DNA of 64,000 nucleotides from Dehalococcoidia bacterium (GTDB lineage Bacteria > Chloroflexota > Dehalococcoidia > DSTF01 > JACRBR01). Each line of letters opens with the position of its first letter. Position 1 is the first letter of the stretch. A model generated the notes under the pieces. It was not told where the DNA came from, did not search any database, and saw only the letters and a program-made list of their open reading frames with translations. The stretch spans positions 220,823-284,822 of the forward strand of contig JBBDXD010000022.1 in the NCBI GenBank assembly GCA_040902535.1, in the 5' to 3' direction. Shown here piece by piece: positions 19,882-29,133 of the stretch. A program made the position numbers and the translations under genes.

Positions 19882-21288
19882 ATGAAGGCGGTCGGATACT
19901 TCCGAGAGGCGCCGGAGTGCGGCCAGACGCTTGCTCAGCAGAACAAGCTCTTCCTGGAGTTCTGCGATCGCGAAGGCTACGAGGTCGCGGGCACGTTCGC
20001 CGATGGCGCTTCGTCCAACGGGCGGGCGCCGGGGTTCCGCCAACTCGTCGCGTTCCTGCGCGAGCGCGAAGGCGCCTTCCACGTCGTCGTGGTGCCGAGC
20101 ATGGAGACGCTCGGCGGCGACGTGAGGGACGCGGCCGTGCGCTATTTCCAGATCGAAGGACTCGGCGCGCAACTCGCCTCGATGGACGGTACCGCCGATG
20201 CGTCGGCCGGACTGCTCTCGGCGTGGACCACGCACGACGACGGCAACAAGCTCAGCGACCGCGTGCGCGCGGCGATGCGACGCAAAGCCGTGAAGGGCGA
20301 AGTGCTCGGCCGGCCGCCGTACGGTTATAAGGTCGGCAACCGGCGGCGCCTGGAGCTGATCCCGGAAGAGGCAGTCGTCGTGCGTTACATTTACCGTCTC
20401 TACCTGCATGAGAGCATGGGCATCCGCCTGATCGCCCGGCGCCTGAACGAAGAAGGCCTGAAGACGCGGCGCGGCGGCAACTGGAGCATGGTGAGTATCC
20501 GCGACATCTTGCGGAACCGCGCCTATCTCGGCACGTACTCCCGGTTCGGCGTCCGCGTGCCCGGCAGCCATCCGTCGCTTGTCGCCAACGACGACTTCAA
20601 GCTCGTGCAGGACCGGCTCAACGCGCGTCGCACGAGTTATTCGCCGCGCGTGACGTCGCAGTTCCTGCTGTCCGGCATGGCGCACTGCGGCTACTGCGGC
20701 AACAAGCTGATCGGCGTCAGCCGCAAGCAGACCTGGAAGCGCAAGAGCGGCGAACGCGTCGAGAACTCGTACCGCTATTACCAGTGCGAGTCGCGCACGA
20801 ACCAGAGCGTCTGCAGCTACCACACGCGCCGCGCCGAAGATCTCGAGGCGGAGGTACGCGCGTCGATCGAGACGTCCGTCCGCGAGGGGCACGGCCTGCC
20901 GCCGGCCGCGAACGAGGCATCGCTTGTGGCGGATAAGGAGCACGAACGTGAGCGCCTGGCCTCCCGCGTCCGCGCCGTCGACAAGCGGCTGGAAGGCTAC
21001 GTGGAGGCAGCCGTCAAAGGACGTCTGACGAAGGAGAAGATGCACGAGTTGAGCGTTGCCGCCGCCTCGGACAGGCTCCGCCTCGAAGACGCGCTGGAAC
21101 TCGTAGAGCGTCGCATAACCGATCGCGAGCACGCGTCCGATCGCAAGCAGACGCGCGAGCGCGATGTAGCGCGCCTCGTGCGCGAGTGGAGCGACCTGCG
21201 CTTTGCGGAGCGCCAGAACGCCCTGCGCGAAGCGGTCTCCCGCGTGACGGTTTCCGACGATCGCATCGACGTCACGCTGCGCCCCTAA
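19882..21288 (+). CDS. Large serine recombinase-family protein with degenerate catalytic domain
   Basis: GRPPYGY, recombinase domain (IARRLN..G..T..G..WS..SIR.IL.N.AYLG), zinc ribbon (LLSG.AHCGYCG..YYQC..C) and coiled coil. N-terminal motif is YFREA instead of YxRxS. Confidence 0.88.
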   Translation: MKAVGYFREAPECGQTLAQQNKLFLEFCDREGYEVAGTFADGASSNGRAPGFRQLVAFLREREGAFHVVVVPSMETLGGDVRDAAVRYFQIEGLGAQLASMDGTADASAGLLSAWTTHDDGNKLSDRVRAAMRRKAVKGEVLGRPPYGYKVGNRRRLELIPEEAVVVRYIYRLYLHESMGIRLIARRLNEEGLKTRRGGNWSMVSIRDILRNRAYLGTYSRFGVRVPGSHPSLVANDDFKLVQDRLNARRTSYSPRVTSQFLLSGMAHCGYCGNKLIGVSRKQTWKRKSGERVENSYRYYQCESRTNQSVCSYHTRRAEDLEAEVRASIETSVREGHGLPPAANEASLVADKEHERERLASRVRAVDKRLEGYVEAAVKGRLTKEKMHELSVAAASDRLRLEDALELVERRITDREHASDRKQTRERDVARLVREWSDLRFAERQNALREAVSRVTVSDDRIDVTLRP

Positions 21289-22226: not shown

Positions 22227-22254
22227 TTCAGGCGTGATTCGCACACGATATAAT
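22227..22254 (+). promoter_or_regulatory. rnpB promoter
   Basis: TTCAGG-N16-TATAAT ending 5 nt before the RNA 5' stem. Confidence 0.7.
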
Positions 22255-22259
22255 GAGGG

Positions 22260-22628
22260 GCCAGCGGGCCGGGTGGCCGCTCCCGCAAGGGAGAGGAAAG
22301 TCCGAACTCCAAAGGGCAGGGTGCCCGCTAACGGCGGGGCGTCGCGAGGCGACGGAAAGTGCCACAGAAACATACCGGCCGTTTCGGCGGTCAAGGGTGA
22401 AATGGTGCGGTAAGAGCGCACCGGCGTCGCGGAGACGCGGCGGCCGGGCAAACCCCACCCGGAGCAAGGCTACATAGGGGACCGTGTCCTGACCGAAGGT
22501 CAGGCCTAAGGACGGCCCGTCCGAGCGTCCCGGGTCAGCCGCTTGAGCCGCGTGGCAACGCGCGGCCCAGATAGATGGTCACCGTCCGCTTTTGGCGGAC
22601 ACAGAATTCGGCTTACAGGCCCGCTGGC
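22260..22628 (+). ncRNA. rnpB: RNase P RNA (type A-like)
   Basis: GAGGAAAGTCC, AGTGCCACAGAAA, GGTAAGAG, GAGCAAG and ACAGAA..CGGCTTA signatures. Terminal GCCAGCGGGCC / GGCCCGCTGGC P1 pairing. Confidence 0.97.
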
Positions 22629-22715
22629 ATCTCCTCCCCCGCCCTTCGTCTGAGCCCGAACACCGTCGCACACCCGGCTTCGCTCCGTGCGCAGCAGAGA
22701 GTTATATTTCGCGGC

Positions 22716-23411
22716 ATGTCGCTCGATGAAGCTGACGCCCCGGCACGTTCGGCACCCGATCAAGGGCACGTCGCCGCGTCCGCCGACGACGCGAGCGTCG
22801 TCGCCGCGTTGCGGGCGCGGGACGAAGCCACCTTTGCGATGCTCCTCGAACGCTACAACAATTCGCTGCTGCGTCTCGCGATGACCTATCTGCATGACCA
22901 GGCGTCGGCGGAAGAGGTCGTGCAGGATGCGTGGATCGGGCTGCTCGAGAGTCTCGATCGGTTCGAGGGGCGGTCTTCGCTGAAGACGTGGCTCTTTCGC
23001 ATTCTGGTCAACTGCGCGCGTGCCCGGGCGCGCAAGGACGCCCGCACGATCCCCTTCTCCGCCGCCTTTCGTCCCGAGGAGTTGGACGCGGGAGAGCGCA
23101 CAGGCCGTTTCGTTCCCGACTGGGTGCCCGTCCTGGGCGGGCACTGGGTACGGCCGGTGGCGCAATGGCAGGACGATCCGGAGCACCGGGCGCTTGCCCA
23201 CGAGACGCGCGCGCACATCCAGCGCAGCATCGACGAACTGCCCCCGGTGCAGCGCGAAGTGATCATGCTGCGCGACGTGGCCGGCTTCGACGCGCACGAG
23301 GTCTGTAATGTCCTGGGACTCACGAACACTAACCAGCGGGTCATCCTGCATCGCGCCCGGACGAGCGTGAGGCGAGCGCTGGAGCGCCATTTCGCGGAGG
23401 CAAGGGCTTGA
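22716..23411 (+). CDS. ECF RNA polymerase sigma factor
   Basis: AEEVVQDAW, F.GRSSLKTWL.RI..N and LPP.QREVI.LRD motifs. ATG 22716. Confidence 0.93.
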   Translation: MSLDEADAPARSAPDQGHVAASADDASVVAALRARDEATFAMLLERYNNSLLRLAMTYLHDQASAEEVVQDAWIGLLESLDRFEGRSSLKTWLFRILVNCARARARKDARTIPFSAAFRPEELDAGERTGRFVPDWVPVLGGHWVRPVAQWQDDPEHRALAHETRAHIQRSIDELPPVQREVIMLRDVAGFDAHEVCNVLGLTNTNQRVILHRARTSVRRALERHFAEARA

Positions 23412-23662: not shown

Positions 23663-23776
23663 AGCGTGTTCGCGAACGCGGAAGATGATCGCCCACGACT
23701 GTAACGCGCTGGCTCCGCGCAACACTATAGAATCACGTTTCGGTGCGGAACGTCAGCGTAACGCAGGAGGTGCAGG

Positions 23777-24847
23777 ATGACCGTACAGACCGTGGACCAG
23801 GCCAAGGCCGAACAATTCGCCGGCACCGTGGTCGGCGCGTTGAACAGCGCGTTCACCACGCTGATGATCAGCGTCGGACAGCGCACGGGGCTCTTCGACA
23901 CGATGGCGACCTTGCCGCCATCCACGAGTGAAGAGATCGCGAAAGCGGCCGGCCTCGACGAACGCTACGTGCGCGAGTGGCTCGGCAGCATGACGGTCAG
24001 CCGTTTCGTGCAGCACGATCCGGCGAAGGGCACGTACTTCTTCCCGCCGGAGCACGCCGCATCGCTCACGCACGCCGCCGGCCCCGGGAACCTCGCCAGC
24101 TTCGCGGAGTTCCTCGCGCAGATGGGCAAGGTCGAAGACGAGGTCGTTGAAGCGTTTCAGAAGGGCGGCGGCGTCCCGTACTCGAAATTCGACAGGTTCC
24201 AGGAGTTGATGCGGCAGGAAAGCGCACAGGTCTTCGACGCCACGCTTCTCGATGTCACGCTGCCGCTCGTCGAGGGGCTCCCCGACAAGCTCAAGTCAGG
24301 CATCGACGTCGCCGATGTCGGCTGCGGCGCCGGCCACGCGATCAACGTCATGGCGCGGGCCTTCCCGAACAGCCGCTTCACCGGCTACGACTTCTCGGAG
24401 GAAGGGGTCGCGTTCGGCCGCGCCGAGGCGAAGGAATGGGGCCTCGCCAACGCGAAGTTCGAAGTGAAGGACGTGGCGAACCTCGATGGATCGACGAAGT
24501 TCGATCTGATCACCGTCTTCGACGCGATCCACGATCAGGCGCAGCCTCGAAAAGTGCTCAAGGGCATCGCCGACTCGCTGAAGCCCGGCGGCACCTTCCT
24601 CTGCGCAGACATCGCGGGTGACAGCAACCATGCGGGCAACATGGAACACCCGATGGGGCCGGCGCTGTACGCCATCTCGACGTTCCACTGCATGACGGTG
24701 TCGCTGGCACTCAATGGCGAAGGACTGGGCACGATGTGGGGCCAGCAGAAGGCGCGCGAACTGTTCCGTGAAGCGGGCTTCACGTCTATCGAAGAGAAGA
24801 TGGTCGAAGGCGACATCCTCAACGTCTACTACGTGTGCAGGAAATAA
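23777..24847 (+). CDS. SAM-dependent methyltransferase with N-terminal wHTH (Rv2258c-like)
   Basis: LDERYVREWL, DVGCGAG and FDAIHD motifs. SD AGGAGG. Confidence 0.9.
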   Translation: MTVQTVDQAKAEQFAGTVVGALNSAFTTLMISVGQRTGLFDTMATLPPSTSEEIAKAAGLDERYVREWLGSMTVSRFVQHDPAKGTYFFPPEHAASLTHAAGPGNLASFAEFLAQMGKVEDEVVEAFQKGGGVPYSKFDRFQELMRQESAQVFDATLLDVTLPLVEGLPDKLKSGIDVADVGCGAGHAINVMARAFPNSRFTGYDFSEEGVAFGRAEAKEWGLANAKFEVKDVANLDGSTKFDLITVFDAIHDQAQPRKVLKGIADSLKPGGTFLCADIAGDSNHAGNMEHPMGPALYAISTFHCMTVSLALNGEGLGTMWGQQKARELFREAGFTSIEEKMVEGDILNVYYVCRK

Positions 24848-26237: not shown

Positions 26238-27020
26238 CTAGAGCGTCGAATCCAGGAACGCCGATACCGCATCGTTGAAGGCTTGCGGCTGCTCGAAATA
26301 TGCCGAGTGGCCGCTTTCTTCGATCACGTGATAGCGCGATCCGGCGACGGCGCGATGGCACCGCTCGATGATGTCCGGCGGTGTGATCGCGTCGTAGCGC
26401 CCGACGAGGAACAGCACCGGGAAGTCCGCATCCGCCAGCCGCTCAGCCGAGCTGCCGCGATAGCCCGCAATCGGCGCCAGGAAGTCCTTCGGGCGCGGCG
26501 GATTCAGCCGCCCGATCGAGCGGTACAGGAAGTCGAGGTGCGCCGCGCGTTCCTTGAGCTGCGGCGAGACCGCGCGCTGCATCAGCGTCAGCCGCCCGGC
26601 GTCTGACTCGCGGTGCGCGTCCTGAAGCTCGCGCACCCCGTCGTCCACGGCGCCGCCCGTCGTGCCGGCCAGGACCAGGGCCCTGCAGCGGCCCGGATTG
26701 CGCAGCGAGAAACCGACGGCCGTCCGCCCGCCCATCGACTGGGCGACGATGCGGACTTCATCGATGCCGAGCAGGTCGAGGAGTTCGCGCAGGTCTTCGT
26801 GGAACATGCGCCGTCCCAGTTTTGCCTCGCCCTCGCCGTCCCGGGAGAGGCCGAAGGCCCGATGATCGAAGGTGATGCAGCGGAAGCGCTTCGAGAACAA
26901 GGGTATCTGCTGCCACCAGCTCAGATGATTGCCGCCGGCGCCATGCGCGAAGACCAGCGCCGGTCCGGAGCCGTGCGACTCGTAATAGAAGTCGATGCCG
27001 TTGATGAGGGCAAAGGGCAT
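26238..27020 (-). CDS. Alpha/beta hydrolase
   Basis: HGAGG, DHRAFG.S, AQSMGG nucleophile elbow, GHS. Confidence 0.9.
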   Translation of the reverse strand: MPFALINGIDFYYESHGSGPALVFAHGAGGNHLSWWQQIPLFSKRFRCITFDHRAFGLSRDGEGEAKLGRRMFHEDLRELLDLLGIDEVRIVAQSMGGRTAVGFSLRNPGRCRALVLAGTTGGAVDDGVRELQDAHRESDAGRLTLMQRAVSPQLKERAAHLDFLYRSIGRLNPPRPKDFLAPIAGYRGSSAERLADADFPVLFLVGRYDAITPPDIIERCHRAVAGSRYHVIEESGHSAYFEQPQAFNDAVSAFLDSTL

Positions 27021-27051
27021 GCAGGGATTCTAGGCAGGCCAGCGCGGAGGC

Positions 27052-27084
27052 AAAAGAAATCGCGAGCGGCGGGGCGCTCGCGAT
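27052..27084 (-). terminator. Intrinsic terminator
   Basis: 10-bp perfect stem ATCGCGAGCG/CGCTCGCGAT followed by TTCTTTTG on the minus strand. Confidence 0.75.
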
Positions 27085-27208
27085 GCCTACGGTGTTGGTG
27101 GAGGGCCGAGACGCTTTGTGTGCTGAATGTCTGAGCGTCCCGGCCCCGGAAGTCCCTAACGTGCAGGAGGTAACCACACGTTTGAAGCCCTACGCCGTCA
27201 TCATAGGC
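27085..27208. ncRNA. Candidate structured RNA (possibly a short 6S-like RNA)
   Basis: 27085-27106 pairs with 27187-27208 (19/22 including G-U on +). Internal hairpins GACGCT/AGCGTC and AACGTG/CACGTT. No ORF. Confidence 0.5.
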
Positions 27209-27279
27209 AGGCGGTATTAAACGGCTGTTAAAGAGGGCATAACATTACATTGCGGGTTCGTGTGATTTCTTGACAACGA

Positions 27280-27873
27280 TCACGCCGCCGGCGCCAACTC
27301 GTTTCGCTCGATCAGCCCTGCCAGCGCCGCGACGACGTGAGCGCTGTAGCGCGTGCCGGCGCCGTCCCGCAATTCGGCCATCGCGGCTTCGAGCGACATG
27401 GCGGGCCGGTAACTCTGCGGCGTCGTCAGCGAATCGAGCACGTCGGCGACCCGGCAGATCATTGCGGCGAGCGGGATCTGGGGCTCGCGCAGGCCGCGCG
27501 GGTAGCCGCCGCCGTCCGGCTGCTCGTGGTGCGCCGCCGCGCAGTCGACGATCGGCTGCGGCAGCACCCGCTCGAGGATGGCCGCGCCCATGCCGGGATG
27601 CAGGTGGACATGCTCGGCCTCGTGCTCGTCCAGGCGCCCCGGCTTCTTGAGCACGCCCAGGTCCACGCCCATCTTGCCGATGTCGTGCAGCAGTGCCCCG
27701 ATCCGCACCTGCTCCGCGGCCTCGCCTTCCATGCCGAGCGCCCGGGCGATCGCGGCTGCGTACTCCGCCGTGTTCACGCAGTGGCGGAAGCTCTCCTCGT
27801 CCCAGACGCGCATGGCGTGCGTGAGCGCCTCGACGGCATGGATCACCGGGATGCGCTGTGGCTGGTCACTCAT
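27280..27873 (-). CDS. Stand-alone HD-GYP domain phosphodiesterase
   Basis: LLHDIGK, HP..G..IL and HHE.PDG.GYP motifs. ATG 27873. Confidence 0.9.
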   Translation of the reverse strand: MSDQPQRIPVIHAVEALTHAMRVWDEESFRHCVNTAEYAAAIARALGMEGEAAEQVRIGALLHDIGKMGVDLGVLKKPGRLDEHEAEHVHLHPGMGAAILERVLPQPIVDCAAAHHEQPDGGGYPRGLREPQIPLAAMICRVADVLDSLTTPQSYRPAMSLEAAMAELRDGAGTRYSAHVVAALAGLIERNELAPAA

Positions 27874-28017
27874 CGGCACTCCCTGTTCTGCAGTTGGTAT
27901 CGGCCGCATGCGGTGCAGGGGGCAGGCCCGGTTCGAACTTAGGGAAAACGCGTACGGCGCTTCGACCGTGCGATGAGTGCGCGGTAAGCTCTCCGCGCAG
28001 CCACGAGGGAGCAGCAC

Positions 28018-29133
28018 GTGAAGATCACCGAAGTCAAAACGAGGCGCTTCGTCTTCAACCACGAAGACCATCCGTTCCACCCGACGTGGCGTCCCTTCGC
28101 GGAGCGTCACCAGGACGTGATGGTCGTCGAGGTCCACACCGACGAAGGCATCACGGGCATCGGCGCGGGTGGCGTGCTGACGCGGCTGAACACCGCCGCC
28201 GGCCTGTTCGTCGGTCGCGACCCGCTCGCGATCGAAGAGCACTGGCACCTGCTGCGTGGCATCGCGAACTTCATGGGCCGCCCGTGGCCGATCGAGATCG
28301 CGCTGTGGGACATCGCCGCGAAGAAGGCGGGCGTGCCGCTCTACAAGCTGCTGGGCGGCAAGAACGACAAGCTGCTGGCCTACTGCTCGACGGGCGAGAT
28401 CCACGGCCTGGAGCAGCGCGTCGAGGATGTGCTGCGGATCCGCGAGATGGGCTTCAAGGCCGTGAAGCTGCGCTTCCACAACCCCGACTGGCGTATCGAC
28501 CTGAAGACGCTCGACGCCGTGCGCAAGGCGGTCGGTGACAGCATGACGATCATGGTCGATGGCAATTGGGGCTGGTACCTGCCCGGCGACCGTCGCGTAG
28601 GCGCCTGGGACCGCAAGACCGCGCGCGCCGTCGTCAGGGCGCTGGAGGACTACGACGTCTTCTGGATCGAAGAGCCGTTGTACGCCTACGACTACGACGG
28701 CCTCGCCGAAGTGCGCGCGAACACGACGGTGCGCGTGGCCGGCGGCGAGTTGAACGCTGGACTGCACGAGTTCCAGGTGTACTTCGACAAGGGCTCGTTC
28801 GACGTGTACCAGCCGGACTGCACGTTCGCCGGCGGCATCACCGTAGCGAAGAAGGTCGCCGGCATGGCCGAGGCGGCGGGGCTCCTGTTCGCGCCGCACA
28901 CGTGGACGAACGGCCTGGGCCTGGCGGCGAACCTGCAGGTCGCCGCGTCCGTGTCGAATTGCCCGTTCATCGAGTTTCCGTACGACCCGCCGAACTGGAT
29001 ACCCGAGTACCGCGACTTCATGCTCACCGAGCCGATGACCATCGATACGGACGGCTACCTGCACGTGCCGGACAAGCCGGGTCTTGGCGTCGAACTGGAC
29101 GAAGAGCGGCTACGATCGATTGAGCGTGTCTAA
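28018..29133 (+). CDS. Mandelate racemase/muconate lactonizing enzyme family
   Basis: IEIALWDI..K..G.PLYKLLGG, K.K-like motif, MVDGN, WIEEP, GGE, HTW. Confidence 0.92.
   Translation: MKITEVKTRRFVFNHEDHPFHPTWRPFAERHQDVMVVEVHTDEGITGIGAGGVLTRLNTAAGLFVGRDPLAIEEHWHLLRGIANFMGRPWPIEIALWDIAAKKAGVPLYKLLGGKNDKLLAYCSTGEIHGLEQRVEDVLRIREMGFKAVKLRFHNPDWRIDLKTLDAVRKAVGDSMTIMVDGNWGWYLPGDRRVGAWDRKTARAVVRALEDYDVFWIEEPLYAYDYDGLAEVRANTTVRVAGGELNAGLHEFQVYFDKGSFDVYQPDCTFAGGITVAKKVAGMAEAAGLLFAPHTWTNGLGLAANLQVAASVSNCPFIEFPYDPPNWIPEYRDFMLTEPMTIDTDGYLHVPDKPGLGVELDEERLRSIERV

Follow-up and report, generated by a model that had tools for sequence, protein, structure and literature searches.

The stretch at positions 27085–27208, which a preliminary description had put forward as an unannotated structured RNA, is, as judged from comparative sequence analysis, a real, previously uncatalogued and conserved small RNA gene on the minus strand. 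In its general sense the earlier claim is borne out: the RNA is conserved, its stems covary, and no Rfam 15 family accounts for it at the gathering score or at E ≤ 10. From all 37 distinct copies, the sRNA appears to be confined to a single group within the Chloroflexota, made up of uncultured members of the class Dehalococcoidia from soil and sediment. With moderate confidence, we lean towards a stand-alone, trans-acting sRNA that occludes Shine–Dalgarno sequences, is switched on by an activator of the OmpR/PhoB type, and is followed by a hydrolase gene that forms a separate, leaderless unit.

In the window (the whole stretch of DNA that was analysed, 64,000 nt), the flagged positions lie in a gap of 259 nt between two minus-strand genes, encoding an HD-domain protein and a hydrolase; the preliminary description had given an ORF-free gap of ~260 bp. 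The features of the gap and its flanks are listed below in the order of transcription. Promoter counts refer to a matrix of 34 distinct upstream regions, aligned without gaps on GTAGGG, from which the variants L004 and L287 were excluded.

27280–29064, minus: gene for an HD/HD-GYP-type protein of 594 aa, the upstream neighbour
27238–27245, minus: distal upstream box ATGTTATG, 11 nt upstream of box 1 (T-49 in 30/34, T-48 in 31/34, A-47 in 27/34)
27226–27231, minus: promoter box 1, TTAACA, -38 to -33 (the four letters of TTAA in 34/34, 34/34, 33/34 and 34/34)
27215–27220, minus: promoter box 2, TTAATA, -27 to -22 (TTAA invariant at -27 to -24, A-22 in 33/34)
27200–27205, minus: -10 hexamer TATGAT (TAnnAT), -12 to -7 (T-12, A-11 and T-7 invariant, A-8 in 29/34)
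27193 to 27052, minus: predicted sRNA transcript of ~142 nt, matched over its full length by covariance model R1 (104.9 bits, E 1.4e-25)
27188–27193, minus: near-invariant 5' motif GUAGGG, +1 to +6 (G, T, A and G each in 34/34, the next Gs in 31/34 and 33/34)
27159–27181, minus: hairpin 1, a 7-bp stem ACGUGUG/UGCACGU with two G-U pairs and a 9-nt loop GUUACCUCC, supported by covariation
27166–27170, minus: CCUCC anti-Shine–Dalgarno sequence on the 3' side of the hairpin 1 loop, invariant in 39/39 aligned sequences
27102–27147, minus: hairpin 2, a 13-bp GC-rich stem (27134–27146 with 27103–27115) and an 18-nt loop, supported by covariation
27085–27101, minus: C/A-rich single-stranded linker CCACCAACACCGUAGGC, 0–40 nt long in homologues
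27052–27084, minus: Rho-independent terminator from the terminator scan, a 10-bp stem AUCGCGAGCG/CGCUCGCGAU with a 6-nt loop, then UUUCUUUU
27027–27032, minus: TAGAAT, the -10 hexamer of the hydrolase gene, outside the sRNA and 6 nt before the ATG (27020–27018)
26238–27020, minus: gene for an alpha/beta-fold hydrolase of 260 aa, the downstream neighbour

The ends of the predicted sRNA derive from the geometry of promoter and terminator and not from reads; it starts at the first G of GUAGGG and finishes with the U-tract of the terminator, and its homologues span 134–180 nt. The runs found to contain the sequence of the 64-kb window are DNA runs from sediment metagenomes, and the look-up returned no RNA-seq run with the window or with locus L269. 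For the homologue L251, two runs of unstated type (X4/X5) gave contigs of depth 2 that span the promoter too and provide no transcript boundaries.

All relatives of the hydrolase come from MAGs of Chloroflexota/Dehalococcoidia, sampled in soil, groundwater and sediment; within the set of species-level genomes, the best amino acid identity is 80%. The initial alignment covered the 20 closest genomes at species level. In 18 of them, blocks corresponding to the minus strand of the window precede the hydrolase gene, and in a nineteenth (L002) they lie further upstream. The covariance model R1 was built from 19 of the hydrolase-upstream sequences and returned 39 copies, 37 of them distinct, with scores of 67–153 bits. 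These include copies in 19 hydrolase-linked loci and a single one in the window (27052–27193, minus strand), while no copies were found in 60 loci with hydrolase homologues of at most 64% identity.

Genomes and metagenomes were also scanned with patterns free of gene context. A first pattern, ACCTCCT..GGRCGCTCA, was abandoned as too loose, its matches (at least 120, in unrelated phyla) being due to chance only. A tighter three-block pattern added five copies from 185,579 species genomes and 14 from JGI metagenomes; the genome loci are all Chloroflexota/Dehalococcoidia MAGs and the metagenome contigs carry no label. Pattern matches confirmed by the covariance model come only from genomes labelled Chloroflexota or from unlabelled metagenome contigs with the same hydrolase and HD-domain neighbours. 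Six Chloroflexota-labelled matches of the first, loose pattern (L098, L135, L160, L162, L171 and L188) gave no match to the model on recheck, and the scans of genomes and metagenomes found no copy away from the hydrolase context. One MAG, MFD02416.bin.1.78, carries the sRNA–hydrolase module on three contigs (L007, L011 and L239); two of the copies are nearly identical and one has diverged in the promoter and hairpin 1, so that the module is present either as true paralogues or as mixed strains in the bin.

The three helices of the predicted structure are well supported by covariation, a check that had been proposed at the outset. In the model-guided alignment A3, 98.0% of the helix cells are paired, and compensatory changes on both sides occur in 17 of the 28 modelled pairs, compared with 5.8 ± 1.5 in column shuffles, none of 500 of which reaches the observed number. 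When the partners in A3 are slid by 1–3 columns, pairing drops to 32–47%. By helix, the paired cells and the pairs with both-side changes in A3 amount to 94.7% and 4/6 for helix 1, 99.0% and 8/13 for helix 2 (for example A-U 18/G-C 15 at one pair and G-C 24/A-U 11 at another), and 98.8% and 5/9 for helix 3, the terminator. The same three helices are recovered independently by RNAalifold on A3. The two hairpins first noticed within the stretch are real, their pairing being kept by compensatory changes in the 37 distinct homologues. A further pairing, GUAGGG with UCCUGC, was suggested by RNAalifold on a MAFFT alignment and was dropped; its sides are nearly invariant, it competes with the covarying hairpin 1, and it breaks in L012, L013 and L017. 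Coding potential was likewise rejected, as the distances from one conserved block to the next fall into every class modulo 3 and the loops carry indels of 1–2 nt.

The orientation of the gene is settled by four lines of evidence. About 27 G-U cells in the helices would become C-A on the opposite strand, which identifies minus as the functional strand. R1 scores 104.9 bits on the minus strand, whereas on the plus strand it matches only in part and with no more than 20 bits. The conserved -10 and upstream boxes provide a third line, and the orientation of the terminator T-tract a fourth: the terminator scan found one terminator-like site in the gap, facing the minus strand (stem 27084–27059, then TTTCTTTT). 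The lean of that description towards the plus strand, drawn from G-U pairs in a closing stem, was mistaken. Folding of 27085–27208 yields -49.5 kcal/mol for the plus strand (z -2.2 against shuffles) and -51.2 kcal/mol for the minus strand (z -3.2, with 0/200 shuffles as good).

The closing stem itself, 22 nt long, had also given rise to the idea of a compact 6S-like RNA. Its arms do pair in the window, for which RNAduplex gives -23.7 kcal/mol in comparison to -11.6 ± 2.6 kcal/mol for shuffled arms (0/200), but the pairing is not a property of the family. The duplex energy stands out from controls only in the window, L018 and L256, and stays at the shuffled level in 33 of the 36 other homologues, including the nearest relatives L243 and L271, whose hydrolases are >90% identical to that of the window where the sequence is present on the contig. 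Of the 5' arm (27208–27187), 15 nt precede the predicted start and include the -10 hexamer at 27205–27200, and the other 7 nt are the first to be transcribed; the 3' arm (27085–27106) includes the linker and runs into hairpin 2. Being unconserved, and with promoter DNA as its 5' arm, the closing stem is best regarded as a local coincidence, and the resemblance to the closing stem of 6S RNA falls with it. The search of RF00013 and all of Rfam, which had been named as a check, found no 6S RNA and nothing credible in the gap: in the whole 64-kb window, cmscan at the Rfam 15 gathering score reported RNase P only, and within 26950–27350 (401 nt) at E ≤ 10 it gave three junk matches, with RF00013 absent. 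The rod-like fold of 6S RNA with its large central bubble was rejected as a model, since the structure supported by covariation consists of three independent hairpins joined by single strands.

Within this structure, hairpin 1 holds the invariant and mostly unpaired CCUCC. Its stem varies among homologues, with GACAG/CUGUC, GUACAA/UUGUAC and CGCACG/CGUGCG found by hand inspection. ACCUCCU occupies 27165–27171 in the loop, the context (G/A/U)ACCUCCU is present in 33/37, and the predicted median unpaired probability of CCUCC is ~0.8. UAGGGAC, after hairpin 1, repeats part of the 5' GUAGGG. The loop of hairpin 2 has ~27 nt in most homologues, and its conserved sides are CUCACAA and ACAGAAUCAGCG. 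In 27/37, C-rich motifs of the YUCC/CCACC type follow hairpin 2 at a distance of at most 18 nt, with AGAGCACCAAUC common to many, and the linker at 27085–27101 is a possible second seed. The base of the terminator stem, UCGCGAG...CUCGCGA with the palindrome TCGCGA inside it, is almost invariant in the 37 copies (A3 columns 171–201). The upper stem and loop of the terminator vary, and the base is constant even where an insertion separates the terminator from the hydrolase promoter.

The region upstream of the predicted start has the appearance of an activator-dependent promoter. Boxes 1 and 2 are 11 bp apart, corresponding to one helical turn, and box 2 ends 9–10 bp before the -10 hexamer. An invariant G-6 follows the hexamer, which stands 6 nt before the invariant GTAGGG, and this spacing is canonical for a start at the first G. 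The boxes are misplaced for a sigma-70 -35 hexamer. Readings with alternative sigma factors (a sigma-B-like GTTTAA, sigma-28 or ECF) were rejected on consensus spacing; the usual ECF -35/-10 types do not fit the boxes, though a gene for an ECF-type sigma factor lies nearby (22575–23411). TTAAY-N6-TTAAY does not occur elsewhere in the 64-kb window, so that the site formed by boxes 1 and 2 is unique there, and 383 kb of DNA from the clade yielded no second double box. The promoter of RNase P, also located in the window, has an ordinary TATAAT and is without TTAA boxes.

The RNase P RNA is of bacterial class A (22261–22631, plus strand, 282.8 bits), and its -10, a plain TATAAT, occupies 22250–22255. 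The ORF for the ECF-type sigma factor (Sigma70_r2 and r4_2; 22575–23411, plus strand) overlaps its 3' end, for which reason the true start of the sigma gene is probably further 3' than 22575. A large serine recombinase (Resolvase, Recombinase and Zn_ribbon_recom; 19882–21288, plus strand) is encoded ~1 kb before the RNase P gene and may mark an integrated element.

PHO boxes are described as two direct repeats of 11 nt that replace the -35 element, an arrangement general to sites of the OmpR/PhoB family (PMC4415409). The sRNA promoter has the same layout, with two 11-nt repeat units in the place of a -35 that adjoin the -10. The PhoP repeat of B. subtilis is TT(A/T/C)ACA with a 5-bp spacer, and TTAACA-N5-TTAA(C/T)A fits it. 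The exact pattern TTAAC-N6-TTAACA-N8-CTAnnATG has at least 120 genome matches in many phyla (L288–L396 among those listed), for which the chance expectation is estimated at ~70. Among the matches listed, related species of Kiritimatiellia and of Acidobacteriota keep the pattern together with the same downstream gene. For the listed Kiritimatiellia this gene encodes, in ~8 species, a lipoprotein-like protein of 286 aa with no Pfam or NCBIfam match; for the listed Acidobacteriota (Sulfotelmatobacter and relatives) it encodes a conserved protein of ~170 aa, and once the gene is pstS.

The first downstream ORFs of the matches listed from other phyla, 68 in number, comprise five OmpR-type response regulators, and also PstS (above the NCBIfam cut-off), a PhnD-like protein, a PhoD phosphatase and a PHO4/Pit transporter. 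The link to phosphate thus amounts to 4/68 of these listed downstream genes, all from other phyla. None of the response regulators found behind the boxes in other phyla was assigned specifically to PhoB by NCBIfam, all of them scoring below the equivalog cut-offs. These observations hint that the boxes are a site for the OmpR family and, in some lineages, a Pho site, a hint that falls short of proof for the present clade, and the TTAACA-type double box may be a box for response regulators (Pho?) that many lineages share. A response regulator of the OmpR/PhoB family, bound in tandem to the two boxes, would probably drive transcription of the sRNA. That the activator is specifically a phosphate-starvation regulator is a tentative suggestion and, on balance, a doubtful one.

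On the reading that we favour, the sRNA would be transcribed from ~27193 to ~27052 as its own minus-strand gene. The exposed ACCUCCU loop would then pair in trans with the GGAGG ribosome-binding sites of target mRNAs, perhaps assisted by the C-rich linker, and the pairing would block translation initiation in the manner of other anti-Shine–Dalgarno sRNAs. Such sRNAs are common, and the loop sequence presumably matches the 3' end of 16S rRNA. At the level of sequence, the gene has two features of a trans-acting sRNA, namely an intergenic position with its own promoter and Rho-independent terminator, and a conserved and accessible seed, CCUCC. Duplex energies computed over crude ORF starts gave no informative target prediction in this DNA of 65% GC. 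The sequence GCAGGAGGT at 23763–23771 on the plus strand is a perfect 9-nt complement of the sRNA loop ACCUCCUGC, a match that is within chance for a 9-mer. The plus-strand sequence makes up the ribosome-binding site of a gene with HTH_65 and methyltransferase domains (23777–24847), 6 nt ahead of the ATG; this gene could be a target or the match a coincidence.

A different role, which we regard as unlikely, would be to act in cis on the hydrolase gene, as a leader or insulator working by attenuation, in a riboswitch-like manner, or through promoter occlusion or control of read-through. Every copy with a readable downstream flank is found upstream of the same alpha/beta-hydrolase orthologue, and this genomic context allows for a cis relationship. 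In most loci, 15–21 nt separate the end of the sRNA terminator from the hydrolase -10 hexamer, so that the U-tract overlaps the expected position of the hydrolase -35. Regulatory interplay between the abutting terminator and hydrolase promoter is possible. At L015 the hydrolase is present (75% identical) and the sRNA is absent; there, L015:2880–3000 keeps CTCGCGATTTCTTTTG, representing the 3' half of the terminator and the T-tract, upstream of the hydrolase -10 and after the terminator of an unrelated gene. Its retention suggests that this segment also serves the hydrolase promoter.

The spacing of the two genes, however, speaks against an obligatory leader. A hexamer TA(G/C)A(A/C)T is located 5–7 nt before the ATG or GTG of the hydrolase in ~30 orthologous loci (e.g. 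L001–L026), whatever the distance to the sRNA, and the hydrolase gene has no Shine–Dalgarno sequence; its mRNA is for these reasons probably leaderless, and a read-through transcript would present a start codon with no ribosome-binding site. The distance from the terminator increases to 44 nt in L018, 75 nt in L010 and >120 nt in L209, L254 and L261, and to ~270 nt from the hydrolase start in L002, with no change in the RNA. As the hexamer stays fixed relative to the start codon while the terminator distance varies from 15 to >120 nt, the sRNA and the hydrolase are taken to be separate units. The HD-domain gene is upstream in 23/38 member loci, several of the others having too little upstream flank. 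Together, the variable gaps, the hydrolase of L015 and the incomplete linkage to the HD-domain gene argue that the RNA does not derive from the 3'-UTR of the HD-domain gene and is not an obligatory hydrolase leader. The alignment contains no conserved alternative pairing, and neither the constrained distance nor the mutually exclusive antiterminator of a riboswitch or attenuator was found; the terminator is strong, with 98.8% of its cells paired. On the trans-acting reading, the hydrolase promoter would simply abut the sRNA terminator in the common arrangement and serve a separate leaderless unit.

It is distinctly improbable, in our view, that the RNA acts by binding protein, either as a sponge or decoy or as a compact 6S-like RNA that engages the RNA polymerase holoenzyme. 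Such a role would account for conserved single-stranded motifs that are not needed for Shine–Dalgarno pairing (GUAGGG/UAGGGAC, the sides of the hairpin 2 loop and AGAGCACCAAUC), and the length of 134–180 nt overlaps that of 6S RNA. Against this, RF00013 and the other Rfam families are absent at E ≤ 10, the closing stem is unconserved, there is no central bubble, and the RNA has a single GGA-type motif, unlike sponges of the CsrB type. The non-seed motifs, along with the terminator stem and the linkage to the hydrolase, are nevertheless compatible with a protein partner or with action in cis.

Less probable again is a global action in which the RNA, induced for example by phosphate starvation, mimics the 3' end of 16S rRNA and competes for Shine–Dalgarno sequences throughout the cell, leaderless genes escaping. 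Were this so, translation would shift away from mRNAs led by a Shine–Dalgarno sequence, the hydrolase and other leaderless genes would escape, and the pairing of the sRNA with a leaderless gene would be a functional module beyond inherited gene order. Hardly credible is the absence of any functional RNA, with the conservation due to DNA-level sites for the flanking genes or to slow intergenic divergence: the clade is narrow (hydrolases 70–93% identical) and the near-invariant palindrome of the terminator stem, TCGCGAG...CTCGCGA, is a possible operator, but loops and linker are free in sequence and length while changes in the stems compensate one another, the G-U pairs are confined to one strand, and the 17 pairs with double changes contrast with 5.8 ± 1.5 in shuffles and with the pairing of 32–47% in slid controls.

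For uncultured soil and sediment Chloroflexota of the class Dehalococcoidia, no regulatory RNA was described in the literature searched. The trans-acting sRNA favoured here is a well-delimited candidate, with promoter, seed and terminator, 37 distinct sequences and strong covariation, and could seed an Rfam family. Its promoter points to a regulator site, TTAACA-N5-TTAACA, placed 9–10 bp from the -10, and among the matches listed the same site recurs across many phyla before genes for phosphate acquisition and OmpR-type regulators. The RNA is unsurprising in kind, and the 6S idea that lay behind the apparent oddity of the region fails.

In comparison to known systems, the sRNA resembles 6S RNA (RF00013) in size range, in intergenic position and, in the window alone, in the pairable ends of the flagged stretch; it differs in that the model does not match, the closing stem is not conserved and a central bubble is absent. 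With attenuation leaders and riboswitches it shares a structured RNA and a terminator directly 5' of a gene on the same strand, whereas here the distance to the gene varies, the gene starts leaderless from a -10 of its own, and no antiterminator is conserved. Its promoter is similar to the PHO-box promoters of PhoB/PhoP in that direct repeats with an 11-bp period stand in for the -35 some 10 bp before a normal -10 (PMC4415409); unlike those promoters, most of the matches in other phyla precede unrelated genes.

The closest likeness is to the cuckoo/alpha-r14 sRNAs of Alphaproteobacteria, which have adjacent hairpins with compensatory stems and an anti-Shine–Dalgarno motif in the loops as their one strongly conserved sequence, and for which pairing to ribosome-binding sites is predicted (NfeR1) or proposed (cuckoo family) (PMC4615179, PMC10746234). 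Members such as NfeR1 and CcsR/RSs0680 and the present sRNA are alike in being intergenic and terminator-ended, with covarying stems and an unpaired C/U-rich anti-Shine–Dalgarno loop. The cuckoo/alpha-r14 RNAs carry the nonamer CCUCCUCCC in each of two to four hairpins, whereas here a single hairpin displays ACCUCCU(G), the loop of the second hairpin, though conserved, is different, the host is a member of the Chloroflexota and no Rfam family is matched. Membership of cuckoo/alpha-r14 was therefore rejected, as only hairpin 1 bears the C/U motif and the Rfam match is lacking; the sRNA is an analogue of that group and not a member, and represents a new family among the already familiar anti-Shine–Dalgarno sRNAs. 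It is because its invariant exposed anti-Shine–Dalgarno sequence, covarying stem and terminator reproduce the cuckoo/alpha-r14 design that a trans-acting sRNA occluding ribosome-binding sites is favoured.
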